Shown here: piece after piece, positions 3,014-51,537 of the stretch
Layout: each line of letters begins with the position of its first letter
Numbering within the stretch: position 1 is the first letter of the stretch
Source: Undibacterium sp.
Lineage (GTDB): Bacteria; Pseudomonadota; Gammaproteobacteria; Burkholderiales; Burkholderiaceae_D
Length of the DNA stretch: 64,000 bases
Direction: 5' to 3'
Assembly (NCBI GenBank): GCA_025352365.1
Contig: JANXTO010000136.1
Location: 2,010 to 66,009, forward strand
Program-made: the position numbers and the translations under genes
The notes under the pieces: generated by a model
What the model was told of the DNA's origin: nothing
Databases searched by the model: none
The model's input: the letters and a program-made list of their open reading frames with translations, nothing else

Positions 3014-3100
3014 AATATACTCCCCTTTATTTTATTAAAATATGCCCTATTGACCAATTATTATATGGACACCTAATACATACCCACCCAGAGTATATAA
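3014..3100 (-). repeat. Copy 1 of the ~85-bp structured intergenic repeat (consensus reads on the minus strand)
   Basis: ATATACTCCCC (3015-3025), core TTGACCAATTATTATATGGACA, and terminal GAGTATATAA (3091-3100). It lies between convergent gene ends. Confidence 0.8.
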
Positions 3101-3150
3101 TATATTATCTATGCCAATCAGTCACAAACCAAAGTGAATTGAGTCGCAAT

Positions 3151-3798
3151 TTAAGTACCCGGACTGCGCTTCACAAAAAATAACGCAGCACCAATCGCCA
3201 TTAAAATCCCACCGAAAAAGCGATTCTGCTTTTTCACTAAACGTGGATCGCGGAAATAGCGTTGCATCGATGACGCTGCCCATGCATAGCTATGCATCAC
3301 CACCAAATCTACAGCGCACATCGTCATCCCCAATATCAATAACTGTGGCAACAAGGGCGCGTCGTGGCTAATAAATTGCGGCAACACCGCCACCATAAAA
3401 ATGATCCCTTTTGGGTTCGTAGCATTGGTCAAAAATCCAATTAAAAATCGCTTACGCAAATCCGGTGCCATCGACGCTTGCGATGCCAAAGCACCTTCAT
3501 TCGCGCTGACATCGACTTTGGCACGCCATTGGCTAATGCCTAAATAAATCAAATACAAAGCACCGATGATTTTGACAGCGCTGAAAGCAAATTCGGACGC
3601 CATCAAGATAGATCCTACGCCAGCACCGGCAATCGTAAACACCAATAGCAAACCGGCTTGCAAACCCATGATGGTGCCGCTCGTTTTTTTAACGCCATAA
3701 TTTAAGCCATGCGCCATCGAGAGCACGGCACCAGAGCCCGGGGAAATCGCAATCAAACACGCTGCGAAAAAAAAGGTAAGCCAGAGGGTAAACGTCAT
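3151..3798 (-). CDS. LysE/RhtB-family amino-acid exporter
   Basis: The N-terminus MTFTLWLTFFFAACLIAISPGSGAV is typical of LysE/RhtB, in a ~215-aa six-TM protein. I chose the start at the internal ATG (3798) rather than the ORF-track start (3846). Confidence 0.8.
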   Translation of the reverse strand: MTFTLWLTFFFAACLIAISPGSGAVLSMAHGLNYGVKKTSGTIMGLQAGLLLVFTIAGAGVGSILMASEFAFSAVKIIGALYLIYLGISQWRAKVDVSANEGALASQASMAPDLRKRFLIGFLTNATNPKGIIFMVAVLPQFISHDAPLLPQLLILGMTMCAVDLVVMHSYAWAASSMQRYFRDPRLVKKQNRFFGGILMAIGAALFFVKRSPGT

Positions 3799-3958
3799 GA
3801 TGAGTCCGTAAGTATTTTGAGCAAGAGCGAATAAGCCAGGCAGCAAGTTTGCTGGGGGTCTATTTTAATCTGTGGAAGAAATTCGAGGACAAGCGCATCA
3901 CAAAATAAGAGAAATAAAATTTTTTCGCTTACTTATTTTGCTATTGGACTGGCTTTAC

Positions 3959-5524
3959 TTAGCCACGCATCATGGCGGCTAATAATTGACTCTTTAAGGT
4001 TTTAATCAATGCAGTTTCGTCAGGAGGAACACCCTCTTCTGCCGCAATTGCACGGTCTGCATAAAAAAATCCCAATGATTTTTTCTGGATGACGAGCGGT
4101 AATACAATAAAGCTCAGGGCATCTGGTAACAGCGCACGATGCCAGCTTGGGAGCAGTTTTTGTATCTTCGGAGCGGTCGCATCAGAGATCATCAAATCCG
4201 CATTATTGGTCATGGCCAAATGAAACACGTCTTGCTCTACTTTCATCGGGAATACAAAGCCTCGCTGTCGCTCTGCATATAGTTCGCCAACTGACACACG
4301 TGCCATAAAGCTGGAAGTGGACGGGTCTCGCAAACAAACCGTGGCGAAGCGAAAACCCATGCTGCTGTACAAGGTCTCCAGCACCAGCAATATCATGTCA
4401 TTGAGTTTGATTTGATCAGACGCCAGCATTTGCGTAACGTCTTGTACGCCTGCCAGCAAGAGGTCACGTGCATTGCGTGGCTTGCCGCTAGCGTAGCGTT
4501 CAGCCTGCTGCATTTGATCTGCATTAAAACTTTTTAGCAAAAATTCGCTAGGGAATTCGCCATCGGCAGACAGTGCGTCATCCGTGTCACCAGCAGCAGG
4601 CAGAGCGATGTCCATACTCTCTGCTAGTTGTCTGGTTTCTTGCGTTACTCGCGCCACCATTTCTTCCAGCTTGGCTTGATCGAGCTCTAAGACTTTGCCA
4701 AATTTTTGCAGTAAAGGTTTACAGCGTGCGCTCAGATTATCTGTGCCTGTGGTGAGTACCAGACTGGCTACGCCGTCGCTAAAGGTGGAGACTTGCTTAA
4801 GCCACTCGTTACGGTGGCTGGCTTTTTTTTGTTCACCGGCGGGTAATGCCCCCAGTGATTGAATAATGGTGTCGGGAATTTTCCAATCCTGCAATGCCAT
4901 CTCGCCAAAACGGTCATAACTGCAACCTAACAACAAGCTGGAGGCATCGGCAGCATTCGCCTGCCCGCTTGTTTGCATGGCCTGTATGCGTCCGTATAAA
5001 ACATGATCAAACGAGGCGACTAGAACCCGTCCAATATTTTTAAACAAAGCGGCAACGGCGGCTTCTTCTGCATCTTGATAATGACTACGCTGCGCTAGTT
5101 CACGTCCGACGATACTAGCGCAAAGCGCATGTACCAGCTCTTTGCGGACACTTTGCGCATGTTTTTTATCTTTAAAACAATCCACCAGCAACATCGCCAA
5201 TGCTCCGGTTTTTACCGTGTCAAACCCGAGCAAAAAAATCGCTCTTGAAATCGTAGTGACTGGGACGGTAGCCCGGGTGCGGTAATGAATGGTGTTTGAT
5301 AAACGCAATATTTTTTGCGTCAGTGCTACGTCAGCCAAAACAAAATGTGCCAGCTTGGCAATCGAATCTTCGCCAGAAGAAGTGATCTCCACCACCTTGG
5401 ATACGACTGCGCCCAAGGTCGGCAAAGTGGCATCTTCTGCAATTTTTCTGAGCAAGCGATCACGCGCAATTTCTGGCGCATTCTGCTCTAAATTAACGGA
5501 GGTATCGATAGGCATAGATAACAA
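3959..5524 (-). CDS. HDOD-domain signalling protein with a C-terminal GAF-like domain
   Basis: The N-terminal part has an HDOD-like pattern (LPTLGAVVSKVVEITSS...LAHFVLADVALTQKILRLSN). The C-terminal ~160 aa resembles GAF (ATVCLRD...LVLPLVIQKKSLGFFYADR). Confidence 0.7.
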   Translation of the reverse strand: MLSMPIDTSVNLEQNAPEIARDRLLRKIAEDATLPTLGAVVSKVVEITSSGEDSIAKLAHFVLADVALTQKILRLSNTIHYRTRATVPVTTISRAIFLLGFDTVKTGALAMLLVDCFKDKKHAQSVRKELVHALCASIVGRELAQRSHYQDAEEAAVAALFKNIGRVLVASFDHVLYGRIQAMQTSGQANAADASSLLLGCSYDRFGEMALQDWKIPDTIIQSLGALPAGEQKKASHRNEWLKQVSTFSDGVASLVLTTGTDNLSARCKPLLQKFGKVLELDQAKLEEMVARVTQETRQLAESMDIALPAAGDTDDALSADGEFPSEFLLKSFNADQMQQAERYASGKPRNARDLLLAGVQDVTQMLASDQIKLNDMILLVLETLYSSMGFRFATVCLRDPSTSSFMARVSVGELYAERQRGFVFPMKVEQDVFHLAMTNNADLMISDATAPKIQKLLPSWHRALLPDALSFIVLPLVIQKKSLGFFYADRAIAAEEGVPPDETALIKTLKSQLLAAMMRG

Positions 5525-5669
5525 TAAGTAGGTACGCTGGCGATTGGCTTGCTCGTTTTAGATCGTACTTTGGTTGTGCTTTGTTTTGCTTTGATTATGC
5601 GTCATTTGATTACTACGCCAAACTCAACGCGTCCTACTTTGCTTCTCTTTTTATTCTTAATTTATGTAT

Positions 5670-7304
5670 CTATTTCACTTTTCTTACTGCGGTAATACCA
5701 TATTTCTTTTGAAGCTCATCATACAAACCCTGAATCGCTTTGAGTCGTGGGTTCATCGGATCCAGGCGACGCGCAGATTCAATTAAATGTTTGGCCTGCT
5801 CCCCGATCTGATTGTCCCAACCCAGATTCTCCAGACACTTCAGCGCTGCCAATGCCGCGTTCATCACGACTTGCGGATTATCCGGCGATTTACGAGCGGC
5901 GGTTGTGAGTAATTCTACCGAGCCGCGGAAATCACCTTGCTTGGCTTTTCGCACACCTTGCGCTACCAAGTCCATGACTTCTTTTTGACTTTGCTGTGCC
6001 AGCTCTTTTGCCAGATGTCCTTTGCCTACGCTCTCAAATACACCGATCGCGCGGGTCATCATTTTTTGGTTAGTGGCATTGCGCATCACGTCAAGAATAA
6101 CCTCAGTGGCCTCACCCTCTTGATCATTTTCCAGACAGCTTTTGGCTAAACCTAATTTAAGATTAGTCGACAAACCTATATTTTCGCGGCTGGCGGCAAC
6201 TGCTGCGCCTAACTCATCACCGAGGCGCGCATCACCCGTAGCGGCATGGATTTTAGCGGTAGAAATCGCACGGCAGGCGGCAGTCTTTTTCAGCCCGACC
6301 ATGTTTTTTTCCATGTCGCGGATGACTGATTTGGCTTGCTCGTTATCGCCTTTTTTGACTAAGGCATCCACTAATTTGACATGGTCCTCAGGGTCACGGA
6401 ATTCTGAGAATTTGGCTTTGGCGACGACTTTTTTAAAAGTGGCTTCGGCAGTTTCTATATCCCCCGTTTCTAAGGCGATTTCACCCAGGCGACGCAAGCG
6501 ACGTACTGCGTGGGGCGATACTTCGATGGCGGTTTCCAGCACTGTCTGCGCCTCGGGTAACTCGCCGATCGCTTCGTGAGTTTTAGCCAGCCAGTCGTAG
6601 GCGTCCATGTATTTGTTATTCTCAGCAACCAGCGTTTTGAGAATATTTTCGGCCTCTTCAAAGCGCCCTTGCATAAATAAAGTTTTGGCTAAACCGAGTT
6701 TGGCCCAGGCCACGGCTTTCATTTCAAACAAAGCAGTGTAGAGCGCCTCTGCCTCGGCGTCTTCGCCCAGAACGACATGCAACTCGGCACGCCAGCGCAT
6801 GAAGTCAACGACGTATTTGGGGTAATCTCGCTCGCCGTGATGGCAGGCGGTAATTGCTTCGACCAAAGCACCTTGCTCCATCAGAGCGAAGATTTCGACA
6901 AAGGCTTTACGTTTTTCGATTGCCTTGATCACACGCTCTAGCAGCATGTCGGCGGTGAAGGGTTTTAATAAATAATCGGAAGGTGCCAGCTCTGCCGCAC
7001 TAACCACTTTGGCGTAAGCGCGCTCGGCCGTGACCATAATAAAGATGGTGGAAAGCGGTGTCAGTTTGTGGTGGCGCACGTCTTCTAATAATTGCTGACC
7101 ATCTTGGCCTACGCCAAGATCATATTCACATAAAATCAGATCAAACACTTTGGATTGGATCGTGCGGATCGCTGTACCAGCGGTCAAGGCGTGTTCAATT
7201 TTGGTAATGCCGCATAAATTGAGCATATTGTGCAAACTGACCCGCATGCCTGCATGCGGCTCAATGAGCAATGCTCTTATTTCAGCTAAATCGCTCATGG
7301 ACAC
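5670..7304 (-). CDS. Response-regulator receiver domain protein with C-terminal TPR repeats
   Basis: The N-terminal CheY-like fold has conserved Thr (IMVTAE) and Lys (LLKPF). It is followed by ~400 aa of TPR-like helical repeats. Confidence 0.75.
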   Translation of the reverse strand: MSMSDLAEIRALLIEPHAGMRVSLHNMLNLCGITKIEHALTAGTAIRTIQSKVFDLILCEYDLGVGQDGQQLLEDVRHHKLTPLSTIFIMVTAERAYAKVVSAAELAPSDYLLKPFTADMLLERVIKAIEKRKAFVEIFALMEQGALVEAITACHHGERDYPKYVVDFMRWRAELHVVLGEDAEAEALYTALFEMKAVAWAKLGLAKTLFMQGRFEEAENILKTLVAENNKYMDAYDWLAKTHEAIGELPEAQTVLETAIEVSPHAVRRLRRLGEIALETGDIETAEATFKKVVAKAKFSEFRDPEDHVKLVDALVKKGDNEQAKSVIRDMEKNMVGLKKTAACRAISTAKIHAATGDARLGDELGAAVAASRENIGLSTNLKLGLAKSCLENDQEGEATEVILDVMRNATNQKMMTRAIGVFESVGKGHLAKELAQQSQKEVMDLVAQGVRKAKQGDFRGSVELLTTAARKSPDNPQVVMNAALAALKCLENLGWDNQIGEQAKHLIESARRLDPMNPRLKAIQGLYDELQKKYGITAVRKVK

Positions 7305-7624
7305 CTTAGGTATTCGTTATTTTTATCGGGATGCTGACTTGCCGCCTGCAACTTGGATTTCGCTTGAATTTTAGTTTTAGCCTTAGTTCTAACCTCGGTT
7401 TTAAACTTAGCTTCAACCAAACTTCGTTGCTCGGGCACAACGTCTTTAAATTGACGGTCTCAATGTCTAAAACTTTAACCTATCCAAAATGGCTTTGGGC
7501 AATTTTCAAGCTAGCTTCACGCTAAAACCACATTCAACTGGTTTATGGAGGCTAACTCAGTTGCGAACTCAGTCGCTACATGAGTGACTAAGTGAATAAG
7601 CAACTAACAGTCAGACGTGTCAGC

Positions 7625-7828: not shown

Positions 7829-7876
7829 GCCTCTGAGGTGAGGTTAGAAAATACGACTAAATTGGCGATGAATATC

Positions 7877-7960
7877 ATATACTCCCCTAATTTTTTTCTA
7901 AATACTGCTGATTGTCCAGACTTTAATTGGACGATTAAAATATACTTAATGGGAGTATAT
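7877..7960 (-). repeat. Copy 2 of the ~85-bp intergenic repeat
   Basis: ATATACTCCCC (7877-7887), core ATTGTCCAGACTTTAATTGGACGAT, and ATATACTTAATGGGAGTATAT ending at 7960. Confidence 0.8.
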
Positions 7961-8009
7961 ACGTATCGATCATTTCATCATTCTGCTTAAAGTGCGCTTT
8001 ATCGACTCT

Positions 8010-9254
8010 CTATAAGCGATGACTACGGTCGTGTCGCAATAGTCTGGCATCCAGTTCCACTCCCGTACCGACCACTAAGACTTTAAACAACTCCCCCATC
8101 TCGGCAGGCGAAATCAGCTTTTGCAGAGCGTTGGCTTTTGGCAGATACGCCATGGGGTCGCTGGCGGAGGTGCGCATAAGCAATTCACCGATGCCGGCTT
8201 CCAGCAAAAATCCCGCCTGGCTGACATAAGCTAATAATTCCAGCCCACCTGCTTGTGCTGCCAGCGCCATGCTGGTGAAATCCACATGCGCCGTAATATC
8301 TTGCAAACCCGGCAAATAAAATGGATCGGGATGCGCATGGTGCCGATAGTGACACATCAGCGTGCCTTGCGTACGTTGATCCAGATAGTATTCATGCGCA
8401 GGAAATCCATAATCAATCAGAATGGCGAGCGCGCCTTTGCCACTGAGTTCGCTCCCCTTTTTCAGCATTGCAGCCAAGCTGCGCATAAAGCCTGCGGCAA
8501 CCGGATGGAGTTCCGTCATGTATCCCAACGGAAGCTGATCAGCGCCGGGGATTTGTGCCAGCAGTTGTGACTGCAATTGTGCATCCATCTCGCGGTCAGT
8601 AAAAATCAGCTCTGGGCTCTGCTTGATTTTACTCTCTGCCGCCATTTGCTCTGGTTCCGCTTGATGGCGCACACTCACGCCGACTTCGCGCCAGCCCCGT
8701 TCTGTCCTCACCACCAAATGCACTGGCATAGCGTCCAGCACCTCGTTACCCAGCACAACGCCACAAAAAGCGTCGGGCATTTGTTGCAACCATTGCACCT
8801 GCGGGAAATTTTTCAGCAGATCTTCTTGTCTTGCTCTTAGCTCACCGGACAATTCCACGATAAAATAGCGCTCAACGGCAACCCCAGCAGCCTGACATTC
8901 TGACAAGAAGTCAAACGCCAGCCTCCCGGTACCCGCCCCGAATTCCATCACTTGCGCGCTGGTTTGCGCTAATAAAGAGGCTGCCAGTTGCGCCAAGGTC
9001 GCACCAAATAGCGCTGACATTTCTGGCGCGGTTGTAAAATCACCGTCTTTGCCTAGTTTTGCCGCACCACCGCTGTAATAACCCAGATCCGGCGCATACA
9101 AAGCCAGTTCCATATAACGAGCAAACGAGATCCAGCCTGCATTTGCGTCAATCTGTTGAATAATGTGCTGCTGTAAAGCCTCAGACGCCGCTTGGGCATC
9201 AGCGCCGGGTGCAGGTAATGTAAGTTGCTGTCGTGTGGAGTGAGATAGTCGCAT
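8010..9254 (-). CDS. Class I SAM-dependent methyltransferase, MidA/NDUFAF7 (DUF185) family
   Basis: A 414-aa protein with FTTAPE...FG, a VMEFGAGTG SAM-binding motif and a MidA-like overall pattern. Confidence 0.75.
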   Translation of the reverse strand: MRLSHSTRQQLTLPAPGADAQAASEALQQHIIQQIDANAGWISFARYMELALYAPDLGYYSGGAAKLGKDGDFTTAPEMSALFGATLAQLAASLLAQTSAQVMEFGAGTGRLAFDFLSECQAAGVAVERYFIVELSGELRARQEDLLKNFPQVQWLQQMPDAFCGVVLGNEVLDAMPVHLVVRTERGWREVGVSVRHQAEPEQMAAESKIKQSPELIFTDREMDAQLQSQLLAQIPGADQLPLGYMTELHPVAAGFMRSLAAMLKKGSELSGKGALAILIDYGFPAHEYYLDQRTQGTLMCHYRHHAHPDPFYLPGLQDITAHVDFTSMALAAQAGGLELLAYVSQAGFLLEAGIGELLMRTSASDPMAYLPKANALQKLISPAEMGELFKVLVVGTGVELDARLLRHDRSHRL

Positions 9255-9345
9255 AGCCGCATTGTATAAAAGTCGTCGCCTTCAAGGTGTAATTAAAGGT
9301 GAAATTTAAGATTAAAAAGAATCAGCCGAGTAAGAAAGTATCGCC

Positions 9346-10725: not shown

Positions 10726-10733
10726 GCGCCATC

Positions 10734-18332: not shown

Positions 18333-18416
18333 ATATACTCCCCTCAGGTATATTTATATTGCCCATACAAAATCTGGACAATGAGCCAATTTTATCTAAA
18401 AATAAGGGGAGTATAT
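18333..18416 (+). repeat. Copy 3 of the ~85-bp intergenic repeat
   Basis: ATATACTCCCCTCAGGTATAT hairpin, core TTGCCCATACAAAATCTGGACAAT, and terminal AAGGGGAGTATAT (to 18416). Confidence 0.8.
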
Positions 18417-18435: not shown

Positions 18436-19593
18436 TCAATTATGGATCGCCAGCAAAGTCGCCTGCAACAAGCCTGCCGCCGGACCTTTGTTGGCCCAGG
18501 TCTGGCTTAAATCGACATCGCCGTTGGTGCTGATCATGATCAGGTAGGCTTCGTTTTTGATGTCTACCAAATTGAGTGTGCGGATACCTCCTATCCAGCC
18601 TTGGCGCTCGACGATCATGCTGGCGGGTTTATCCGCCTTGGCAGAAAATGGATAAGACCAGACGCCCAAAGCGCCGCCAACGGCATTCGGTTTCACCATC
18701 TCAGCGCGGCTGGCTGGGGACAATAACCTACCACGGCTAAAGGCCTGATCAAAAGCCAATAAATCCCGCAAAGTCCCAAAAGTCGCGCCTGCGGCACCGT
18801 AGCTGGCAAAGTTGATCGGGATTTCTGGATTGCCGCCGACGATGCCATGTACATGGTTTACATCGTCGTAATACGGTGGACTGTACATACCAGAATGGGT
18901 CATTTTGGCGGGATTGAATATCTTTTGCTGCAATAACTTTTGATATTTGATGCCAGTGACTTTTTCTAGCAGCGCACCTAAGACGATGAAATCGCAATTA
19001 TTGTAATCAAATGCTTCACCTGGCGCGCGCTGCAAAGGCGTAGCGCAGACTGTTGTGGCGTTCAGCTGCATGTCACCGGATGCTGGTGTGCGGGCAAAAT
19101 AAAACTGCGGTAACTTATCTGGATTAGGCAAGCCAGACATGTGCAACATCAACTGCCGGAGGGTGATTGCCCGCGCTGCCTCGTTAGGGAAATCCGGCCA
19201 GAATTTGCCCAGCGGCATATCCAACGCCAGCTTACCGGCATCCACCTGCTGCATCACCATGACCGAGGTGAATAGCTTGGTAATGGAGGCATATCGAAAT
19301 ACACTATCTTTACTCAAAGCAGGCTGCCCGATTTGCGGCTCACCAATAACTTTCTCTAGCAAGACCTGATCACCGTGCGCGGCTAATACCAATCCCTTAA
19401 ATCCGTCAGCCTCTAATTTGCTTGCTGCGGCCTCAAGCCCGGGATTTAGGGCTGGATCAGATGCGGTATTGGGCGCTGCCAAAGATAAAGGCGAGACCGA
19501 CGACAAAGATAACAAAGCACTAACGCATATGCTTGCGACTAAAAAAAGCTTTTTTCGGGACTTCATCAGACCTGACATGGCGACTCCAGACAA
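18436..19593 (-). CDS. Serine hydrolase, beta-lactamase/PBP4*-like family
   Basis: Signal peptide, an SxxK motif (SITK) and a YxN motif (YNN). The start is uncertain among several N-terminal Met codons. Confidence 0.8.
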   Translation of the reverse strand: MSGVAMSGLMKSRKKLFLVASICVSALLSLSSVSPLSLAAPNTASDPALNPGLEAAASKLEADGFKGLVLAAHGDQVLLEKVIGEPQIGQPALSKDSVFRYASITKLFTSVMVMQQVDAGKLALDMPLGKFWPDFPNEAARAITLRQLMLHMSGLPNPDKLPQFYFARTPASGDMQLNATTVCATPLQRAPGEAFDYNNCDFIVLGALLEKVTGIKYQKLLQQKIFNPAKMTHSGMYSPPYYDDVNHVHGIVGGNPEIPINFASYGAAGATFGTLRDLLAFDQAFSRGRLLSPASRAEMVKPNAVGGALGVWSYPFSAKADKPASMIVERQGWIGGIRTLNLVDIKNEAYLIMISTNGDVDLSQTWANKGPAAGLLQATLLAIHN

Positions 19594-25824: not shown

Positions 25825-26295
25825 TTAGCTGCGCTTGCCACGGAAAATCGCCAAGCCTTTGGCAGCCTGGGCTTGCACGGCATTTTTCACCAGCGGCGTC
25901 CAGCCCAGTAACCAGCCTTTCAAACCCAAAGCCTGGCGCGACCATTTCCATAAATCAAACTGATCTGTGTGCTGTACGATTTTGCCATCGCGGAAAGCAA
26001 AGCTGGCATGAATATCATTGATCACTGTGTTACCCGTTTGCGAGAACGTGTAAGTTGCCACCCAATGCGCCTGCCCGCGCTGATCGTCAGCTGAAATACC
26101 GTCAAACACGACAGAAAAATTCTGCGCTTTGCTAGTCAGCATGCGCCACATATCCGCCGCCGCTGCCCCCTGCAAAGAAGGAAAAACCGGATCAGAAAAA
26201 ATCACGTCAGCGGCATAGCAAGCCGCCATCGCTTCGGCATCCAGACGCTGGAAGGCGGTATAAAACTGGGTGATTAATTGGGCATTCGCATGCAT
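25825..26295 (-). CDS. NTF2-like / SnoaL-like (ketosteroid-isomerase fold) protein
   Basis: The N-terminus (ITQFYTAFQRLDAEAMAACYAADVIFSDPVF) is typical of SnoaL_2 proteins, and the length is 156 aa. Confidence 0.75.
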   Translation of the reverse strand: MHANAQLITQFYTAFQRLDAEAMAACYAADVIFSDPVFPSLQGAAAADMWRMLTSKAQNFSVVFDGISADDQRGQAHWVATYTFSQTGNTVINDIHASFAFRDGKIVQHTDQFDLWKWSRQALGLKGWLLGWTPLVKNAVQAQAAKGLAIFRGKRS

Positions 26296-26368: not shown

Positions 26369-26454
26369 TATATACTCCCCCGTTATTTTACAGAAATCGT
26401 CTTACTGACCAATGATTATATGGACACCTTAAAATACTATATAGGAGTATCTAT
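26369..26454 (-). repeat. Copy 4 of the ~85-bp intergenic repeat
   Basis: TATATACTCCCCC (26369-26381), core CTGACCAATGATTATATGGACA, and AATACTATATAGGAGTATCTAT. Confidence 0.8.
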
Positions 26455-28112: not shown

Positions 28113-28284
28113 ACCGTTTCCCTAAAAAGTGAAATTAAAGTAGGTGAAGCAGCGCGATGCTAAATCAGCAATATGTCGAGGCGATGACTTCTCAACAGAG
28201 ACAATTCAGTGAGCGTAGGTGCGATTACGCTACGCTAATCGTACCTACAATTTCTACTAAATTTGAATTTTCAGGCTCTGGAAA

Positions 28285-28372
28285 ATATAGATACTCTTAG
28301 TGAGTATTTATGAGTTGTCCATATAATCATTGGACAATCTGACATTTCGGGTAAAAATATTGGGGAGTATAT
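28285..28372 (+). repeat. Copy 5 of the ~85-bp intergenic repeat
   Basis: ATAGATACTCTTAGTGAGTAT hairpin, core TTGTCCATATAATCATTGGACAAT, and terminal TTGGGGAGTATAT. Confidence 0.8.
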
Positions 28373-29381: not shown

Positions 29382-30269
29382 TTAAGGACGTCCTGAATAC
29401 GGTATGCGAATACTCACAATCGCTCCACCGGTAATCGGTGCCTCAATCATTAGCTGCGCATCTTGTCCGTATAAAATTTTTAGTCGCTCGCGGATATTAC
29501 TTAAGCCTATACCATCGTCGGCATGGACGTTAAAACCGATGCCGCTGTCTCTGACATTGACTTGCAAATAGTTGCCTGCGGCAGCGGCGCTGACATGGAT
29601 TATGCCGCCTTCGGTCTTCGGTTCCAGACCATGTTTGATCGCATTTTCAACCAGGGTTTGTAACATCATCGACGGGAAAGCAGCGTCTGCCAGATGCACA
29701 GGAACATCGAAATTGACTTGCAAACGTTCACGCATCCTAGCTTGCATAATATGAAGGTAAGCCCGCGACAGCGCAACCTGCTGCCCTAATCTGCCACCGC
29801 CCTGCTCGCGCATTTGCGGTAAAGCCGAGCGCAGATATTGAATCAGATGGGTGTGGATTTGTGCGGCCTGTAGCGGATCGGTTTCTATCAACTGACCAAT
29901 CAAGGCTAAGGTATTAAACAAAAAATGCGGCTCGATTTGTGCCTGCAAGGTTGCCATTTGCGCTTCCATCAAACGCCGCTCCAAGGCTTCGACATTGGCC
30001 TTGGTAGTGGCATCGGCCGCTTTTAAATCAGCCTGACGCTTGCCACCTGCCAGCACTTTGATAGCGACCGAGCTGATGGCAAAAAAAGCGCCTAATTCAG
30101 GTGTCCGCAATATCGGGCCGACCACCATCATCACCGCAAAACAAACAATGGCCAGATTCTGCCAGGACACCACCGCCAGCCAATCGAAAAACCGCCACCA
30201 CAATACGGTTGTGGTTTCAACGATGTCTAAAACGATCGTCAAAATGCGATTGTTTCCATCGGATTTCAT
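29382..30269 (-). CDS. Sensor histidine kinase, LytS/YehU-type (His_kinase PF06580-like + HATPase_c)
   Basis: IEPHFLFNTLA H-box, ENAIKHG N-box, and a short membrane-anchored N-terminus. It is paired with the LytTR regulator. Confidence 0.85.
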   Translation of the reverse strand: MKSDGNNRILTIVLDIVETTTVLWWRFFDWLAVVSWQNLAIVCFAVMMVVGPILRTPELGAFFAISSVAIKVLAGGKRQADLKAADATTKANVEALERRLMEAQMATLQAQIEPHFLFNTLALIGQLIETDPLQAAQIHTHLIQYLRSALPQMREQGGGRLGQQVALSRAYLHIMQARMRERLQVNFDVPVHLADAAFPSMMLQTLVENAIKHGLEPKTEGGIIHVSAAAAGNYLQVNVRDSGIGFNVHADDGIGLSNIRERLKILYGQDAQLMIEAPITGGAIVSIRIPYSGRP

Positions 30270-30631
30270 TGTCCACCGCCGCTCTGATCGCCCTGATCAG
30301 GATGACTCCCCGCTACTGAACGGGAATGCTCAAGACGTGTGGCGCGTTGACGACTTTTTCTGGTGGCTAAGACACTCACCAAAATTAAGAGCTTAATCAT
30401 CAAAAAGCTAAGAAATAAAACCAGAGCCAAAGGCAAAATGGTCAGCAAAATGGCTAATGCAATCGACAAGATGAGCAATTGCGGCGCAGGCAAGCGGCGC
30501 ACCCAGCGCAGACCAGTGCGGGCAAGATCGATGACAGTCGTCCACAATTCTCTCAATAAAGCGGTGACAGCGTCGAATGTGCTTTCTGGTTTTTGTGTTT
30601 GCGAGTTGGTTTGTTGTGTTTGCTCTTGCAT
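30266..30631 (-). CDS. Small membrane protein (121 aa), translationally coupled to the LytS-type kinase
   Basis: An ATG at 30631 lies 7 nt after GGAG. There are two hydrophobic helices. The stop overlaps the kinase start (ATGA at 30266-30269). The upstream part of the 211-aa track ORF looks non-coding. Confidence 0.5.
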   Translation of the reverse strand: MQEQTQQTNSQTQKPESTFDAVTALLRELWTTVIDLARTGLRWVRRLPAPQLLILSIALAILLTILPLALVLFLSFLMIKLLILVSVLATRKSRQRATRLEHSRSVAGSHPDQGDQSGGGQ

Positions 30632-31052
30632 GATCATGCTCCATTGGTTTGAAAGGTGGGAACTTCTAACAACCCTATAGTCGAGATGCAGCGCTAGGCA
30701 CAAAACGCAGCAATACGTCGGTATTGCGAGGCTTTGTAACGACGCGATGCGCTCGAGTATAGAGTTGTAAGAAATTCCCGAGGCATTGCTGCCGACATGC
30801 ACACTATATTTAAGATGGATCAGCGTCACCAGCAACATATGACCGATTGCTGACTTGAGGGTTTTATTGGTCGATGTGCCGGATAAACGGTAGTCAGGCA
30901 AAAACCCAGTGCTATCTGTACCAGGATTTCGACCATATCTCTGGCTAAATAGCTAATTGGTGCTTGTAACATACAATAGAAGAACTTCTATAAGAAAAAC
31001 ATTATCTTAGCTGCGTCCGGTTTAACCAAATCATTTGAACTGCCCTTATTAA

Positions 31053-32508: not shown

Positions 32509-33375
32509 ATGACATCGCATATTGATAAAACGCTAGAGTTTAGCTTGTCCGCCAGTGACGGCACGTCTCTCTTTGTGCGTGACTGGCCATTGTCTCTGAC
32601 GGATGACAAAAAACCGGTACACGATGGCATTGTGATCATGCATGGTCTGGGCGAGCATTGCGGTCGCTATGCGCATGTGGCGCGGTTTTTTAACGCATTG
32701 GGATTTGCGGTACGCACTTATGATCATCGCGGCCATGGCGCATCTGGTGGTGCACGTGGCGATAGTCCTGACGAAGAATCTTTGCTGCGTGATGCCAGAC
32801 TGGTGATTAATGATTTCAGCAAACATCTGACTGCGCCTCCGTTATTGTTAGGGCATAGCATGGGCGGCTTGTTTGCAGCGCGTTTTGCGACTGCTGGTTT
32901 GGCGCCTATCCGTGGATTAATTTTGTCCTCCCCGGCGTTGGCATTACCGATGTCTGGCATGCAGCTGGCCTTACTCAAAGTTGCCAGTGTCTTGTTCCCT
33001 GGCCTTGGTGTTTCTAATGGTTTAAAAACAAAGTATTTGTCGCATGATGCAGAGGTAATTCAGGCCTACATCAACGATACTCAGGTGCACTCCAAAATCA
33101 GCGCACGCTTATTAAATAGTATGCTGGCCTCGATGGAATACGCCCATGATCACGCGCCACAACTTAAAATTCCGGTACTAATGATCGTCGCAGGCGATGA
33201 TCATCTGGTTGACCCCGAGGGCAGCCAACGCTTTTTTGTCCGCTTACCGGAAGAAACTGCGCAGGCGTATTTTTACGATGGCTTTTATCACGAGATTTTT
33301 AATGAGCTGGAAGCCACCCGTGTCTTTGACGATGTGCGGACATGGCTGGTGCAGCGACATTTCATCGCAGCCTGA
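32509..33375 (+). CDS. Alpha/beta hydrolase (lysophospholipase / monoacylglycerol lipase-like)
   Basis: HG oxyanion motif (IMHGLGEH), nucleophile elbow GHSMGG, and C-terminal D and H residues (GDDHLVD and YHEIF). Confidence 0.82.
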   Translation: MTSHIDKTLEFSLSASDGTSLFVRDWPLSLTDDKKPVHDGIVIMHGLGEHCGRYAHVARFFNALGFAVRTYDHRGHGASGGARGDSPDEESLLRDARLVINDFSKHLTAPPLLLGHSMGGLFAARFATAGLAPIRGLILSSPALALPMSGMQLALLKVASVLFPGLGVSNGLKTKYLSHDAEVIQAYINDTQVHSKISARLLNSMLASMEYAHDHAPQLKIPVLMIVAGDDHLVDPEGSQRFFVRLPEETAQAYFYDGFYHEIFNELEATRVFDDVRTWLVQRHFIAA

Positions 33376-33395: not shown

Positions 33396-33481
33396 ATAAA
33401 TACTCCCAGTAGGTATATATTAGTTGTCCTTATAAAACCTACCTGATACGTCATTTTTAAGATGAAAATTGGGGGGTATAT
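33396..33481 (+). repeat. Copy 6 of the ~85-bp intergenic repeat (degenerate core)
   Basis: AAATACTCCCAGTAGGTATAT hairpin, a half core TTGTCCTTATAAAA, and terminal TTGGGGGGTATAT. Confidence 0.65.
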
Positions 33482-39302: not shown

Positions 39303-39773
39303 ATGCAAGAATCTAACTTGCGCACGTTGCCCACATGTCCTACATCAGTCACGCTGGTCAGCGGCGGCAGTTATCAGCAAAGAGAGTCTGCGATTGCTGC
39401 CGCTGTACAAAAGATGCAAGTCCTTGCCGGTATCCATAGCGTCAATTCTGTCGCCGTCATACTGGAAGGCTTGCCCAGTGGTGAACTGGCACTCCAAGTC
39501 ATCAACGATAGATTGTCTGATCCGGCAACAGCACCGCAGACAAAGCTCAAACCCACACTACGAATACAACGCATCGCACCTGGCTGTATGTGTTGCATAG
39601 GCAATCTCGCCATGCGCGTTACACTCAATCGTCTGTTACGACAAAAACCCAATTATCTGTTTCTGGCACTAGGCAATCCAGAGCATTTAACACAACTGCG
39701 TGACTTTTTATCACAAGCGCCGTATGTGGACTTGCTGAAATTCGATGCAGATATTATTTTAAGCTCTGGCTGA
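39303..39773 (+). CDS. Hypothetical protein resembling a P-loop-less CobW/COG0523 (G3E) N-domain
   Basis: The block order resembles CobW. VTLVSGGSYQQRES occupies the Walker-A position, followed by VAVILEG, GCMCC (as in GCICC) and LFLALGNPEHL. There is no GxxGxGK[ST]. The alignment is by eye only. Confidence 0.45.
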   Translation: MQESNLRTLPTCPTSVTLVSGGSYQQRESAIAAAVQKMQVLAGIHSVNSVAVILEGLPSGELALQVINDRLSDPATAPQTKLKPTLRIQRIAPGCMCCIGNLAMRVTLNRLLRQKPNYLFLALGNPEHLTQLRDFLSQAPYVDLLKFDADIILSSG

Positions 39774-39793: not shown

Positions 39794-39879
39794 TATATAC
39801 TCCCCATCATTTTTACAAAAATAGCCGTATTGTCCAATCATTATATGGACAATAAAATATACTCCTACAAGCATAAATA
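39794..39879 (-). repeat. Copy 7 of the ~85-bp intergenic repeat
   Basis: TATATACTCCCC (39794-39805), core TTGTCCAATCATTATATGGACAAT, and AAAATATACTCCTACAAGCATAAATA. Confidence 0.8.
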
Positions 39880-42778: not shown

Positions 42779-42864
42779 AATATATTCCCCATAAAATTTT
42801 AGCAATTAGGCTTAATGTCCAATCATTATTTGGACGTCTAAAATATACTTACAGCAGTATATTT
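42779..42864 (-). repeat. Copy 8 of the ~85-bp intergenic repeat
   Basis: TATATTCCCC (42781-42790), core ATGTCCAATCATTATTTGGACGT, and ATATACTTACAGCAGTATAT hairpin. Confidence 0.75.
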
Positions 42865-42951: not shown

Positions 42952-43015
42952 AAAAAAAAGCCCGCAGAGTGTGCGGGCTGAAATCCAAACCTTTACGGTG
43001 TTGGAGGAGACAGGT
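42952..43015 (-). ncRNA. Candidate sRNA A (sibling pair); 5' end approximate
   Basis: The minus strand reads (TATAGT -10-like)...CUGUCUCCUCCAACACCGUAAAGGUUUGGAUUUCAGCCCGCACACUCUGCGGGCUUUUUUUU. The parts are a single-stranded CU-rich seed, a hairpin CCAA(C)ACC/GGUUUGG, an AU-rich linker, and a GC-rich terminator hairpin followed by U8. Confidence 0.6.
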
Positions 43016-43209: not shown

Positions 43210-43278
43210 AAAAAAAAACCCCCTACCTTAAGGTTGCGGGCTGAAATCCAAACCTTTACGGTGTTGGAGGAGACAAAC
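43210..43278 (-). ncRNA. Candidate sRNA B (sibling pair); 5' end approximate
   Basis: It shares a 40-nt block (GCGGGCTGAAATCCAAACCTTTACGGTGTTGGAGGAGACA on the plus strand) that is identical to copy A. It has its own imperfect terminator hairpin (CCCGCAACC/GGTAGGGGG) plus U9, and a conserved upstream block TTATTTGCTGC(A/G)CTGCGATA(T/A)AGT. Confidence 0.55.
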
Positions 43279-45416: not shown

Positions 45417-45422
45417 GTCCCC

Positions 45423-47314: not shown

Positions 47315-47437
47315 GCTGCTTCCTATTCCACTGTCAAAACTTACTCAAAATTACGTCAAGCGTCATCGATCATTCTCATGCACGAATATGAAAATGAACG
47401 ATGACGTAGTAAGACACATACGACTATTCAGGTCTGA

Positions 47438-49057
47438 TTACTTAGCACTAAAATCGTACGCATGAGTGCGTTCGTCGGTACGTGGAATATAGGTAATATT
47501 CTTCTTCATGGCCCAGGTCGTCACCTGCTGATGAATCGGAATGATCTCGGCATCATTGATCACCAGCGCAGTCGCATCTTGCAATAACTTCAGGCGGACT
47601 TTATCGTCTACTGTGTTCATTGCCTTACCTAAGATTTCATTCACTTTAGGATTGCAATATTTGAGGTAGTTGTTACCGCCAAACCCTTTTTCAGGCTCAT
47701 CACAGGCGGCAATCGCGCGTAAAGGGGAAGAGACTTCGCCAGTCTGTGCGCCCCAGCCGAGCAGGCCCATAGAGTATTCACGCTTAATCCCGCGCGAGGC
47801 GTAGATCGACATTGGCATACCTTCTACCTTGGCTGCGATACCGATTTTTGACAGCATTTGGGCAATTGTTTGGGTAATTTTCTCATCATTGACATAACGA
47901 TTATTCGGGGTCTGGATGGTGACACCAAAGCCGTTGGGATAACCAGCCTCGGTCAATAATTTTTTAGCCATGTCTGGATCGTATTTCATGACTTTGAGTT
48001 CGGGATTATGCCCAAATAAAGTGATAGGAACCAAGTTGGCAGTCGGCTGTGACAGTCCTTCCATAACACGATCTTTAATCGCGTCACGATTGATCGCCAT
48101 CGAAATCGCTTTACGGACACGGATATCTTTCAATGGATTTTTATCCATAGGCTTGCCATCTTTGTCCGTGATAAACGGTGATTTATCGCGAGTACCATCC
48201 AGATATAAATAGATCAGGCGGTGCGATACTTTTGACATCATGGTCAGATTGGTGTCGCTACGGATACGGGCAACATCGGGGGTCGGTACGTTCTCTAAGG
48301 CTTGCACATCACCCGCTAACAAAGCCGCAATGCGGGTCGCGCCGTTAGGAATAAAACGCAACGTCATTTTGCTCCATTTACCGGCTTTTTTACCCCAATA
48401 ACCATCGAAGCGATCCATCTCAATTCTGTCATCGCGCAGAAATTTGACAAACTTGTACGAGCCGGTACCGACCATCCCTTTGCCGCTAGAAAAATCATCG
48501 CTGGTCAAACCTTGCGTGGCTTTTTTAGAAACGATGTAAATCGCTGACAAATCCGGCAACATTAACGGGTAAGGCTCTTTGGTGGTCAGGCGAATGGTGT
48601 AGGCATCGACGATCTTTTTATTGATGATTGCTTTGGTGTAGACATCAAATTTGCCCGGGCTACCTACGATGGTTGCCGGACGATCTAATGACCACATCAC
48701 GTCGTCGGCAGTCATTTCGGAACCGTCATGAAACTTGACGCCTTTGCGCAGTTTTAATTCCCAGGTCAGGTTATTCACCAGCGTCCATGATTCTGCCAGG
48801 CCAGGAATGATGCGACTATCGGCATCCATGGTGACCAGAGTCTCAAACATATGGTCTGAGACATTCAGGTTAGGAAACACATTATAAAAATGGGGATCGA
48901 GCGAAGTCGGTGGCGAACTCATCGCCAATTTAAATTCTTGCGCAAAACTCTGTGGCGAGACAGCCATTAATGCAGAGAAGGCAGAGATACTGGCAGCCAG
49001 CAACACTGTGCGTGGTTTTATTTTTATTTTGCTTTTGATTGTGTGCAGCATCGACAT
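47438..49057 (-). CDS. Family-5 ABC substrate-binding protein (peptide/nickel binding)
   Basis: A 539-aa protein with a signal peptide and SBP_bac_5-like blocks (LVTMDADSRIIPGLAESW...KFHDGSEMTADDV). It is the first gene of the five-gene operon. Confidence 0.88.
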   Translation of the reverse strand: MSMLHTIKSKIKIKPRTVLLAASISAFSALMAVSPQSFAQEFKLAMSSPPTSLDPHFYNVFPNLNVSDHMFETLVTMDADSRIIPGLAESWTLVNNLTWELKLRKGVKFHDGSEMTADDVMWSLDRPATIVGSPGKFDVYTKAIINKKIVDAYTIRLTTKEPYPLMLPDLSAIYIVSKKATQGLTSDDFSSGKGMVGTGSYKFVKFLRDDRIEMDRFDGYWGKKAGKWSKMTLRFIPNGATRIAALLAGDVQALENVPTPDVARIRSDTNLTMMSKVSHRLIYLYLDGTRDKSPFITDKDGKPMDKNPLKDIRVRKAISMAINRDAIKDRVMEGLSQPTANLVPITLFGHNPELKVMKYDPDMAKKLLTEAGYPNGFGVTIQTPNNRYVNDEKITQTIAQMLSKIGIAAKVEGMPMSIYASRGIKREYSMGLLGWGAQTGEVSSPLRAIAACDEPEKGFGGNNYLKYCNPKVNEILGKAMNTVDDKVRLKLLQDATALVINDAEIIPIHQQVTTWAMKKNITYIPRTDERTHAYDFSAK

Positions 49058-49385
49058 CGACGACTCCTTAAAAATAGTACGGAACGGTGCTCACAATCAG
49101 ATTCTTAGGATAGAAAACGAACTAGATTCCGATTGCAGCAAAATGATTTACACTTGAATTTATTAATACAGTTTCTTGACACTATTTTTTGACACTGTTT
49201 TTACAACAAGCACTATGGCAAAAACATTTGGCGATTGCACATCTAATGTAGAGATGATGGCTTGGATTAATTGATTGTTTGCTCGATCTTTTTGCCCGAT
49301 TACTTGCCAATCTGCATTGTGCAACAACATACACTGCGCACTGTTTTGGCGCAACAAATTAGCAAGTATCCTGAGTGAATTCTTA

Positions 49386-49443
49386 GGTTCGCTATTGGTT
49401 CGCTATTTTGTTCGCCATTGCTACCGCTATTGCCCACTATTTG
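49386..49443. repeat. Five phased imperfect direct repeats with core C(G/C)CTATT, 10-13 bp apart
   Basis: The units are ggttcgctatt / ggttcgctatttt / gttcgccatt / gctaccgctatt / gcccactattt. They lie immediately upstream of the RBS of the M20 gene. Confidence 0.6.
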
Positions 49444-49456
49444 TACGGAGAACATC

Positions 49457-50656
49457 ATGCAATTAATTGACCCTATCCTCCAGTTCCATACAGAACTACA
49501 ACAAATCCGACGCGATATTCACGCCCATCCTGAGTTGAGTTTCGAAGAGCATCGCACCTCAGATGTTGTGGCCCGCAAGTTACAAGAATGGGGCATCCCT
49601 GTCATTCGCGGCCTTGGCACCACCGGCGTAGTTGGCATCATCAAAAACGGTCACAGCCAGCGCGCCATCGGATTGCGTGCTGACATTGATGCTTTACCGA
49701 TGCAAGAATTCAATACCTTTGCGCATGCCTCAAAAAATGAAGGCAAAATGCATGCCTGCGGCCATGACGGTCACACAGCGATGCTGTTAGGTGCGGCACA
49801 TTATTTATCTCAGCACAAAGAATTTGACGGCACTGTGTATGTGATCTTTCAACCGGCAGAAGAAGGTGGCGGTGGCGCCAAGCGCATGATGGATGACGGC
49901 TTGTTTGAACAGTGTCCGATGGAAGCGGTATTTGGCATGCATAACTGGCCGGGTGCGGCAGTGGGTAGTTTTGGCGTGACCTCCGGGCCGATGATGGCGT
50001 CGTCCAATGAATTTGACGTCGTCGTCAAAGGTAAAGGTGCCCATGCGGCGCAACCTCACAAGGGTATCGATCCCATCATGGTCGCGGTGCAAATTGCGCA
50101 AAGCTGGCAAACTATTATCACCCGCAACAAAAGCCCGCTGGACACCGCGGTGCTATCCATTACCCAAATCCACGCCGGTAGTGCAACCAATGTCATCCCC
50201 GATGAAGCCAGCTTAATCGGTACGGTGCGCGGCTTCACCACATCGGTGGTGGATCTGCTGGAAAACCGGATGCGTGCTATTGCAGAACATACTGCCGCTG
50301 CCTTTGATGCCTCCGTTGAATTTAGCTTTAAACGTAACTATCCGCCACTGATCAATCACGCCAGAGAGACCGCCTTTGCTGTCGATGTAATGCGCTCTAT
50401 CGTCGGAGATGAGCGCGTTGATGCGCAGGTAGAACCCACTATGGGCGCAGAAGATTTCGCCTTTATGTTGCAGGCCAAACCGGGTTGTTATGTCTTCTTA
50501 GGCAATGGCGATGGCGAGCACCGCGATATGGGTCATGGTCTGGGACCATGCAACCTGCATAACCCCAGTTATGACTTTAACGATGATTTGCTGCCGATAG
50601 GTGCAACTTATTGGGTACGACTGGCAGAAGCCTACTTGAAAAATACAAGCCCATAG
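49457..50656 (+). CDS. M20-family amidohydrolase (hippurate hydrolase / N-acyl-amino-acid amidohydrolase-like)
   Basis: Blocks RRDIHAHPELSFEE, ALRADIDALP, HACGHDGH and FQPAEEGGGGA. The ATG at 49457 lies 8 nt after GGAG. Confidence 0.88.
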   Translation: MQLIDPILQFHTELQQIRRDIHAHPELSFEEHRTSDVVARKLQEWGIPVIRGLGTTGVVGIIKNGHSQRAIGLRADIDALPMQEFNTFAHASKNEGKMHACGHDGHTAMLLGAAHYLSQHKEFDGTVYVIFQPAEEGGGGAKRMMDDGLFEQCPMEAVFGMHNWPGAAVGSFGVTSGPMMASSNEFDVVVKGKGAHAAQPHKGIDPIMVAVQIAQSWQTIITRNKSPLDTAVLSITQIHAGSATNVIPDEASLIGTVRGFTTSVVDLLENRMRAIAEHTAAAFDASVEFSFKRNYPPLINHARETAFAVDVMRSIVGDERVDAQVEPTMGAEDFAFMLQAKPGCYVFLGNGDGEHRDMGHGLGPCNLHNPSYDFNDDLLPIGATYWVRLAEAYLKNTSP

Positions 50657-50730
50657 CCATCTAAAGCAAGCTATACATCAGCTACACAAAATTTCCACCC
50701 ACTACACCAATCCAACCAAACGACAATATT

Positions 50731-51309
50731 ATGGCCGACGAAAATAACAACGACAACGCACCACGTAGCCCTTTTCTGGAAGAAAAAGCCTTCAAATCAC
50801 GCACCGTGCTGGTATTTGGCACCATCAACGACAAGTTGGCTGCTGATGTCAGCAAGCGTCTGATCGCTCTGGCGGCTGAATCCAAAGATCCGATCACGAT
50901 ATTGGTATCGTCGCCCGGCGGCCATGTGGAATCAGGCGACGTCATTCATGACATCGTCAAGTTTATCGATGCACCGGTAAATATGGTCGGCACGGGCTGG
51001 GTCGGCAGCGCCGCAGTGAATGTATTTTTGGCGGTACCAAAAGAGCGTCGCTTCTGCTTGACCAATACCCGCTTCCTGATTCATCAACCCAGCGGCGGCG
51101 CAGGCGGGCAAGCCAGCGACATCGCCATCCAGGCGCGTGAAATCGTCAAAGTCCGTGAACGCATTGCAGCATTGATCGCAAAAGAGTCAGGACAATCACT
51201 GGAAAGAGTCACAACCGACATCGACCGCGACTATTGGATGAATGCATCCGAGGCCAGCGAATACGGTCTGGTATCACGCATTATCGTCAAGCAAACTGAG
51301 TTAAGTTAA
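50731..51309 (+). CDS. ClpP-family serine protease paralog (no adjacent Clp ATPase)
   Basis: ClpP-like blocks are present: SPGGHVESGDVIHD, GSAA (Ser), LIHQPSGG (His), and DRDYWM..EA.EYGLV (Asp). The N-terminal region is shorter than in canonical ClpP. Confidence 0.75.
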   Translation: MADENNNDNAPRSPFLEEKAFKSRTVLVFGTINDKLAADVSKRLIALAAESKDPITILVSSPGGHVESGDVIHDIVKFIDAPVNMVGTGWVGSAAVNVFLAVPKERRFCLTNTRFLIHQPSGGAGGQASDIAIQAREIVKVRERIAALIAKESGQSLERVTTDIDRDYWMNASEASEYGLVSRIIVKQTELS

Positions 51310-51318
51310 TTACTGAAA

Positions 51319-51404
51319 ATATATACTCCTGCCATGTATATTTTATTGTCCGTATAATCTATGGACAATAGCGTGTTTTTATTAAAAATGAGGGGGAGTA
51401 TATT
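51319..51404 (+). repeat. Copy 9 of the ~85-bp intergenic repeat (best-preserved)
   Basis: ATATACTCCTGCCATGTATAT hairpin, core TTGTCCGTATAATCTATGGACAAT, and terminal GAGGGGGAGTATAT. It starts about 10 bp after the clpP-like stop. Confidence 0.85.
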
Positions 51405-51534: not shown

Positions 51535-51537
51535 ATC

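Follow-up and report, generated by a model that had tools for sequence, protein, structure and literature searches.

An ancient, static 84-bp repeat family of Undibacterium with five slowly evolving sequence blocks

Is a short non-coding repeat that recurs between the ordinary genes of a bacterial chromosome a mobile element at work or the residue of one, and why are parts of it so well conserved? This question is raised by a 64,000-nt stretch of DNA from Undibacterium sp. (the window, by which we mean the whole stretch), in which a first-pass annotation had noted nine copies of an unnamed structured intergenic repeat, labelled c1–c9 below, and had taken their density and conservation to suggest an active or recently active mobile or structural element family. 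We find that the copies belong to a well-bounded 84-bp family, and that this is somewhat more probably than otherwise an ancient, now static, non-coding family of Undibacterium resembling miniature inverted-repeat transposable elements (MITEs), whose conserved blocks would be kept for recognition by a protein.

The nine copies are real. With a hidden Markov model (HMM) made from the nine, and again with one made from 47 copies, nhmmer recovered exactly these nine in the window (E = 1e-14 to 1e-23), where they had been annotated, with model boundaries agreeing within 1–4 bp; at E <= 10 it added only echoes of the palindromic units on the opposite strand. A covariance model, searched without filters, returned the same nine at 53–86 bits, its remaining matches being such echoes as well, so that both models, which the first-pass annotation had proposed as a check, match nine window copies and nothing else in the window. 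The nine copies aligned poorly in the given orientation and cleanly once c1, c2, c4, c7 and c8 had been reverse-complemented, with a mean column identity of 71% over 109 columns including flanks. The end motif GGGGAGTATAT, allowing one mismatch, occurs 11 times in the window, where 0.23 occurrences are expected and none of 100 shuffles reached 11, and all 11 fall within the nine copies; the central 24-mer occurs five times, with none expected. An independent repeat finder also picked up the family (as D5–D8, D11 and I1–I7).

For comparison, the window aligns to contigs 1 and 6 of Undibacterium sp. GrIS 1.8 at 93–96% nucleotide identity and to GCA_034314085.1 at 94–96.5%, with shared gene order in the latter, while its NtrX-like protein is 100% identical to the GrIS 1.8 counterpart. 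DNA identities no higher than these place the window, judged by its sequence, as a sister strain or species of GrIS 1.8, and this gives natural comparison genomes. The nine copies, with the orthologous copies found in these and other sequences (cited by our L labels), are the following; c6, already described as degenerate, is indeed the most degenerate of them.

c1, 3014..3100, minus strand: between convergent genes, a 269-aa open reading frame (ORF) ending at 2965 and a LysE-family gene ending at 3151; nhmmer 62.5 bits, covariance model 82.5 bits; orthologous copies in GrIS 1.8 (L109), L110, L111 and L112.
c2, 7877..7960, minus strand: 50 bp past the stop of a Methyltransf_28 gene (8010-9254, minus strand), upstream of a DUF2905 gene; nhmmer 64.1 bits, covariance model 81.6 bits; orthologous copies in L109, L110, L111 and L112.
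c3, 18333..18416, plus strand: 20 bp past the stop of a beta-lactamase-family gene (18436-19593, minus strand) and antisense to it; nhmmer 62.6 bits, covariance model 77.7 bits; orthologous copy L110:18117-18204.
c4, 26369..26454, minus strand: between two minus-strand genes, a 145-aa ORF and a SnoaL gene (25825-26295); nhmmer 55.3 bits, covariance model 72.7 bits; also present in the near-identical Logan contigs L096 and L097.
c5, 28285..28372, plus strand: the copy closest to the consensus, its 24-mer being the exact consensus; nhmmer 65.3 bits, covariance model 85.6 bits; block A (ATAGATACTC) from about 28287, block B GAGTAT, central TTGTCCA-TATAATCAT-TGGACAA at 28315-28338, block E GGGGAGTATAT at 28362-28372.
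c6, 33396..33481, plus strand: 21 bp past the stop of a hydrolase gene (32509-33375), right arm of the central palindrome gone (GGGGGGTATAT); nhmmer 47.7 bits, covariance model 53.3 bits; orthologous copy L102:4844-4931.
c7, 39794..39879, minus strand: left arm degenerate, 21 bp past the stop of a 156-aa ORF (39303-39773); nhmmer 52.0 bits, covariance model 73.0 bits; orthologous copy L102:11492-11568.
c8 (GGGGAATATAT), 42779..42864, minus strand: 120 bp past the adenosine deaminase stop, between convergent genes; nhmmer 52.7 bits, covariance model 79.7 bits; orthologous copy L102:14515-14601, and a probable diverged orthologue in Xuan67W, L098:13989-14074.
c9, 51319..51404, plus strand: 10 bp past the ClpP stop (51309), between convergent genes; nhmmer 60.2 bits, covariance model 80.7 bits; orthologous copies in L105, L106 and L107; the most stable fold of the nine, at -30.1 kcal/mol (z = -5.1).

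The anatomy of the unit emerged from an alignment of 47 copies, nine from the window and 38 from GrIS 1.8. Length is 82–85 bp in 46 of the 47, with a mode of 84 bp and sharp boundaries, and one copy carries a 25-bp insertion. The consensus reads (A)ATATACTCC-nnnTn-AGTATATTTT-AA-TTGTCCA-TATAATnAT-TGGACAA-TAAGGC-ATTTTT-nnn-AAAAAT-AAT-GGGGAGTATAT, and five blocks in it keep at least 90% identity among the copies: A (ATACTC), B (AGTATAT), C (GTCCATATAAT), D (TTGGACAAT) and E (GGGGAGTATAT). Block A is the inverse of block B, with which it forms hairpin 1, and also of block E, with which it forms the terminal inverted repeat; block E repeats block B directly at a distance of about 63 bp, and C and D make up the central palindrome. 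The terminal inverted repeat measures 9–11 bp (ATACTCC(CC) ... GGGGAGTAT, the right arm extending to GGGGAGTATAT), and the end motif recurs a third time (AGTATATTTT), 7 nt in from the left end. In the terminal pairing of ATATACTCC(CC) with GGGGAGTATAT, pairs 3–9 with 81–87 form in 65–100% of copies. Inverted termini are thus present as first described, except that the left arm is well conserved through ATACTC only, its CCCC tail pairing with GGGG in 33–76% of copies. The right end is better conserved than the left, the final AT being present in 45–47 of the 47 copies and the corresponding left T in 31, and the two copies that end in GC have AT at the left.

The surroundings of the unit are A/T-rich, with at least 85% A/T at positions -5, -4, -3 and -1, and, over the 47 copies, no direct repeat of 2–6 bp rose above a flank-shuffled control at any boundary offset; the target-site duplications that the first-pass annotation had proposed looking for thus give no signal. 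Outside full units the end motifs occur neither in the window nor in 576 kb of Undibacterium DNA, and these sequences hold no singlets and no long element with the same ends. Across the 47 copies, the unit contains no conserved ORF or start codon, an ATG before GGGGAG not being conserved. A hidden 3' extension, in which a C-rich flank would pair with GGGGAG, was considered and dropped, with 5 of 47 copies showing it and 0–2 in controls.

The copies are old and stay where they are. Among 46 paralogues, pairwise identity averages 0.70 and reaches at most 0.83, and the variable columns are near saturation (0.41 identity, where 0.29 is expected at random), while block columns reach 0.955. Every one of the seven testable window copies (c1, c2, c3, c6, c7, c8 and c9) has its orthologous site filled in genomes of 87–96% identity, the sites of c1–c3 having been checked in L109, L110, L111 and L112 and those of c6–c9 in L102 and L105–L107; even L111, at about 88% identity, retains c1 and c2. 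The comparison of filled and empty sites suggested at first pass was made, and at these seven sites it uncovered no polymorphic insertion of the unit in genomes 87–96% identical. Further away, in Xuan67W, Jales W-56 and U. jejuense (NtrX 82–88% identical), the sites of c6 and c7 are without the element; as clean empty sites for c6, c7 and c8 these three genomes were rejected, the intergenic DNA being too diverged to align. Seven sites shared by close genomes, together with c6 and c7 sites that lack the element in more distant species, show that the family multiplied in the common ancestor of the GrIS 1.8 group and has stayed put from then on, its copies passing down vertically at fixed positions and none of them being young. 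The original description as "active or recently active" does not survive these results: no pair of copies exceeds 83% identity, all seven sites are shared, target-site duplications are absent, and what is conserved lies mainly in five blocks.

Other small elements do differ between the same genomes. A 235-bp MITE-like repeat, unrelated to the 84-bp unit, lies in GrIS 1.8 at L102:11243-11476, at the equivalent of window position ~39780 and 14 bp from c7; it has inverted ends of about 17 bp (CCCAGATTTTCCATTGG / ...AATGGAAAATCTGGG) and an apparent T(T)AAA duplication, with more copies at L084:2867-3023 and L092:5290-5390. The window is without a copy, which makes this repeat polymorphic between close strains, and two Logan contigs break exactly where it starts. 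Conversely, the window carries at 30650-30763 a 115-bp insert, which lies either upstream of the ORF 30266-30901 or at its 5' end. The ends of the insert are inverted (CCTATAGTCGAG ... CTCGAGTATAG), and the neighbouring 16 bp recur in it in inverted form; GrIS 1.8 lacks the insert (L102 ~2195), and the near-identical Logan contig L096 has it. As the same genome pairs differ by these two elements, the comparison had the power to detect recent mobility. Synteny with GrIS 1.8 stops at ~11.7 kb and ~60.5 kb of the window, with other genes beyond, while gene order across 11.7 kb is unbroken in GCA_034314085.1. An extra 84-bp unit of GrIS 1.8 (L105:19873-19960) lies 65 bp past the 60.5-kb break and gave no usable empty site.

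If the units no longer move, are they merely decaying? At seven loci, we placed the orthologous copies on the family HMM and tallied the changes column by column, with the following result.

Blocks (columns at least 90% conserved in the family): 11 changes in 223 columns, rate 0.049.
Intermediate columns: 18 changes in 166 columns, rate 0.108.
Variable columns: 41 changes in 191 columns, rate 0.215.
Flanking intergenic DNA in the same alignments: 254 changes in 1836 columns, rate 0.138.

At these seven loci the rate in the five blocks is roughly a third of that in the flanking intergenic DNA (p = 5e-5) and roughly a quarter of that at the variable positions of the unit itself (p = 4e-7), the variable columns in turn changing faster than the flanks (p = 0.007). 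In the L111 comparison, the element is 85% identical and other intergenic DNA 70%. Ascertainment can be ruled out as the cause, because a single block substitution costs few of the 50–65 bits of a copy and because orthologues were located by synteny. The comparison suggests that the motif blocks are most likely still under purifying selection.

Is it then the fold or the sequence that is maintained? The RNA folds of the nine window copies are more stable than those of dinucleotide shuffles (z = -1.1 to -5.1, mean about -2.5). Among the 46 paralogues, covariation did not exceed that of column shuffles for hairpin 1, the central hairpin, the A/T hairpin or the terminal pairing; complementary double-change cells numbered 27, compared with 22.6 +/- 3.6 by shuffling, a value reached by 73 of 500 shuffles, and in the central stem a common T-to-C variant is uncompensated in about 40% of copies. 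With covariation at the level of shuffles, the blocks appear to be conserved mainly as sequence and not as a fold, which is more in keeping with a protein recognising them than with an RNA structure.

The family extends well beyond the window. GrIS 1.8 has at least 40 copies in 28 loci, on at least 20 contigs, so that the family is, as had been supposed, genome-wide rather than local. Density is about 1 per 7 kb in the window and in sister loci fetched by anchor genes, and about 1 per 19 kb when judged by the extra copies in loci ascertained by pattern; by extrapolation, this amounts to a few hundred copies per genome. A scan of a genome collection with a degenerate pattern gave about 28 matches in GrIS 1.8 and single matches in many unrelated taxa; those tested outside Undibacterium, including one in Keguizhuia sedimenti (L052), fail the HMM and are chance matches, and so are four partial matches from a scan of viral contigs. 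Diverged units with the same ends and another centre occur in Xuan67W and Jales W-56, one each per 20 kb, while two loci of U. jejuense are without any. When metagenomes were scanned for blocks B and E, further units came to light that share the ends, the A/T palindrome and the length and differ in the centre, on contigs of 50–56% G+C which PurC places beside U. oligocarboniphilum and U. griseum, at 97% identity. In these two species and a metagenome contig, a unit sits at the same place in the purE-purK spacer, the rest of which cannot be aligned. Since units with the same ends and other centres are found in several Undibacterium species, the 84-bp family is genus-wide in Undibacterium (Oxalobacteraceae, Betaproteobacteria) and old, with conserved termini and a lineage-specific core or central hairpin.

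As originally noted, the nine window copies are strictly intergenic, occur in both orientations (c3, c5, c6 and c9 on the plus strand, the other five on the minus strand) and lie mostly just beyond stop codons, the nearest stop being 10–120 bp away. A single ORF overlaps a copy (51361-51711, over c9) and is not called in the annotated GrIS 1.8 orthologue. Judged with a simple gene caller, 39 of 46 copies clearly fall between genes, 24 of them between tandem, 11 between convergent and 4 between divergent ones, and the remaining 7 are found at the edge of a locus or on top of a doubtful ORF; where the genes are in tandem, 17 of the 24 units are closer to the upstream stop than to the downstream start. 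Relative to neighbouring genes, 11 copies are in sense and 14 in antisense orientation. The genes of the window are ordinary chromosomal genes, in line with the gene tables of the orthologous records, and both a Pfam search of the flanking and remaining ORFs and the gene calls of those records agree with the earlier statement that the window has no transposase.

Which known class does the unit resemble? With TIR-type MITEs (those with terminal inverted repeats), it shares a small non-coding size (<300 bp), dispersed copies, inverted termini and A/T-rich targets, but it differs from them in having no target-site duplication, no parent insertion sequence visible in the sampled DNA and no insertion polymorphism. 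With Correia/NEMIS of Neisseria and ERIC/IRU of enterobacteria, it shares being short (~84 compared with 100–155 bp), non-coding, high-copy and intergenic in both orientations, often in 3' untranslated regions (UTRs), with inverted repeats at the termini and the potential to fold into a hairpin overall; in ERIC, too, the copies are old and for the most part fixed. Insertion of Correia and ERIC elements duplicates TA, however, whereas the 84-bp unit duplicates nothing, and its termini are short (9–11 bp), asymmetrically conserved and accompanied by a third, internal end motif. No likeness in sequence between the unit and the Correia or ERIC consensus is known to us. Palindrome-associated elements (PATEs), which derive from IS200/IS605, resemble our unit in that their ends are asymmetric, one end carries a hairpin and the target is not duplicated; in contrast to them, its two ends lack similar subterminal hairpins, its left flank has no fixed tetra- or pentanucleotide, and hairpin 1 abuts the boundary instead of lying ~20 nt inside. 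Like REP/BIME/REPIN elements, the family has long been handed down vertically, in hundreds of palindromic copies outside genes, without duplication of the target and with motifs that are presumably read by a protein. Unlike them, it is A/T-rich rather than G+C-rich, consists of a single unit and not an inverted doublet of one REP, has no singlets, shows no significant selection for complementary changes and has no RAYT in the sampled DNA. REPs are defined by a GT(A/G)G head followed by an imperfect palindrome (Nunvar et al., PMC2817692); the 46-copy consensus has no GTAG or GTGG at either end of the palindrome, its conserved motif being GAGTATAT, and the absence of REP resemblance reported at first pass thus holds. 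In the literature searched, we found no published description of the family or its motifs. The repeat is best filed, from its sequence, as a seemingly undescribed family within the known class of bacterial short interspersed palindromic repeats, and by analogy it would work most like an old MITE or ERIC-type element with REPIN-like persistence.

Other explanations have to be weighed against this assignment. The units could act at the RNA level, transcribed in 3' UTRs or from their own promoter-like hexamers, as a stabilising stem-loop, a processing site, a weak terminator or a small RNA. Many copies begin 10–50 bp past a stop codon, so that the unit must lie in the transcript of the upstream gene, their RNAs fold better than shuffles, as described above, and the central loop is a perfect TATAAT, with a promoter-like TGGACA-16-AAAAAT score in c5 and c7. 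We nevertheless consider such a role unlikely: the unit is asymmetric in sequence and yet without orientation bias relative to genes, it lacks covariation, and in other species the central palindrome is swapped while the ends are kept. An Rfam relative is also missing, since, in agreement with the first-pass annotation, no copy reached the gathering threshold of any Rfam 15 family, and two copies tested at E <= 10 gave only unrelated families, different for each copy, at 11–20 bits. None of c4–c8 was flagged as an intrinsic terminator in a scan of 26–44 kb, and the unit differs from such terminators in its A/T-rich stems and in a T run that begins 8–9 nt past the central hairpin. A promoter was rejected as well, with no -35 hexamer at the right distance from the conserved TATAAT and no more promoter-like matches in the region than by chance (23, where 23.8 are expected). 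A Shine-Dalgarno or small-ORF reading fell with the unconserved ATG mentioned above, and likeness to sigma-54 sites, the Fur box, IHF sites, dif or the DNA uptake sequence (DUS) was dismissed by eye on spacing or sequence.

An active or recently active MITE, moved by a transposase encoded elsewhere and reshaping 3' UTRs through strain-specific insertions, would explain why the unit is small, non-coding, abundant, bounded by terminal inverted repeats and inserted in A/T-rich intergenic DNA. It would also fit the density of 3 per ~20 kb in the GrIS 1.8 group, compared with 0–1 per ~20 kb in other Undibacterium, a difference which means that the family did expand at some time. This explanation is, however, largely refuted by the ceiling of 83% on copy identity, by seven of seven testable insertions being common to genomes in which other small elements differ, and by the lack of target-site duplications and of solo ends or a long element with these ends in 576 kb; we regard it as very improbable. 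The units might instead be slowly replicating vertical passengers of a single-copy domesticated transposase, of the HUH or another type, that reads hairpin 1 and the end motif on single-stranded DNA, in the manner of REPINs and RAYTs. The family has persisted for long, is passed on vertically at fixed positions, numbers hundreds of copies between genes, is built of palindromic modules and makes no target duplication, all of which are properties described for REPINs in papers on REPINs and RAYTs, and the occasional compensatory changes in hairpin 1 would be in keeping with this. Against it, judged by the REP definition (PMC2817692), the unit has no GT(A/G)G head and does not pair two like REPs in a doublet, and RAYTs are reported as essentially gammaproteobacterial (PMC2817692). 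Searches by tblastn with approximate RayT and IS200 TnpA queries gave no match below E = 0.08, and no RAYT-like ORF, in 1.07 Mb of fetched DNA (~10% of a genome), the ORFs beneath the weak matches being those of the housekeeping proteins ScpA, PanC and PriA. REPIN populations normally hold many identical master copies, whereas the 84-bp family has none, and covariation is not significant. On this evidence, we think a REPIN/RAYT-like system doubtful.

The account that we prefer remains the ancient MITE-like family, for which the following course of events may be envisaged. Fixed length, sharp ends and both orientations at hundreds of unrelated intergenic sites suggest that the unit spread by transposition, as a miniature non-autonomous transposon. 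It would have inserted into A/T-rich sites, mostly just past stop codons, without duplicating the target. In the ancestor of the GrIS 1.8 group it multiplied to about 1 copy per 7–19 kb and then came to rest. The blocks are most likely read on DNA by a protein. One candidate is the transposase that once moved the unit, now perhaps single-copy or domesticated; another is a host DNA-binding protein, whose contacts would be the central GTCCA-N9-TGGAC palindrome and the three GAGTATAT motifs. The unit may also act, secondarily, as a stem-loop in 3' UTRs. More specifically, the units could be fixed and selectively maintained binding platforms of an Undibacterium-specific protein, either as a REPIN-like betaproteobacterial replicator, with a non-REP sequence and possibly a non-RAYT enzyme, or as a cis-element recruited by the host from a former transposon. 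The three GAGTATAT motifs would then be read on DNA, two of them direct and ~63 bp, or six helical turns, apart and one inverted. We put this forward tentatively, as a conceivable but not the probable case.

Several observations weigh against the preferred account. The constraint test comprises seven loci in few genomes of shared ancestry, and, since the variable columns outpace the flanks, uneven mutation, such as hypermutability of loops, could contribute to the result. Hairpin 1 shows compensatory changes in single copies, in L077, L016 and U. oligocarboniphilum/griseum, so that base pairing may be relevant after all. About 0.58 Mb of Undibacterium DNA contained no transposase or RAYT with these ends, and classical TIR-type MITEs make target-site duplications, which the 84-bp unit does not. 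Lastly, the relatives compared yielded no pair of filled and empty sites with alignable flanks, and transposition is thus read from the distribution of the copies, not observed.

Some other features of the window stand near the repeats or apart from them. A hairpin with a 13-bp stem, starting with GTAGGT, lies at 28215-28248, 37 bp ahead of c5. Between c8 and the opp operon there are two tandem matches to RF02278, the Betaproteobacteria toxic small RNA, at 42952-43012 (minus strand, 50.7 bits, at the gathering threshold) and 43210-43275 (minus strand, 37.4 bits), which have a perfect 41-nt repeat in common (42972-43012 and 43235-43275). A manganese (yybP-ykoY) riboswitch at 1258-1389 (plus strand, 63.3 bits) precedes a GDT1-family gene at 1559-2131. 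The region of 51.5–59 kb contains local duplications, namely two paralogues of a methyl-accepting chemotaxis protein (51948-52247 and 53881-54180, 75%) and a duplicated pair of a porin-like gene and a 151-aa gene (55494-56199 and 57341-58035, 74–81%), and the TonB gene has a 246-bp internal tandem repeat (59377-59853).

To our knowledge, few interspersed repeat families have been described in Betaproteobacteria outside Neisseria, and the 84-bp repeat adds to them an unnamed, well-bounded, genus-wide family with a lineage-specific core. Its practical uses are modest: it may be of use as a marker for typing, and in Undibacterium it breaks assemblies and adds noise to intergenic annotation. Most worth attention is the apparent purifying selection acting on the blocks of copies that have remained fixed in place across species-level divergence. 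If this constraint holds genome-wide, the family would offer a tractable case for learning why bacteria keep old miniature repeats, be it for a host function or through a resident single-copy enzyme.

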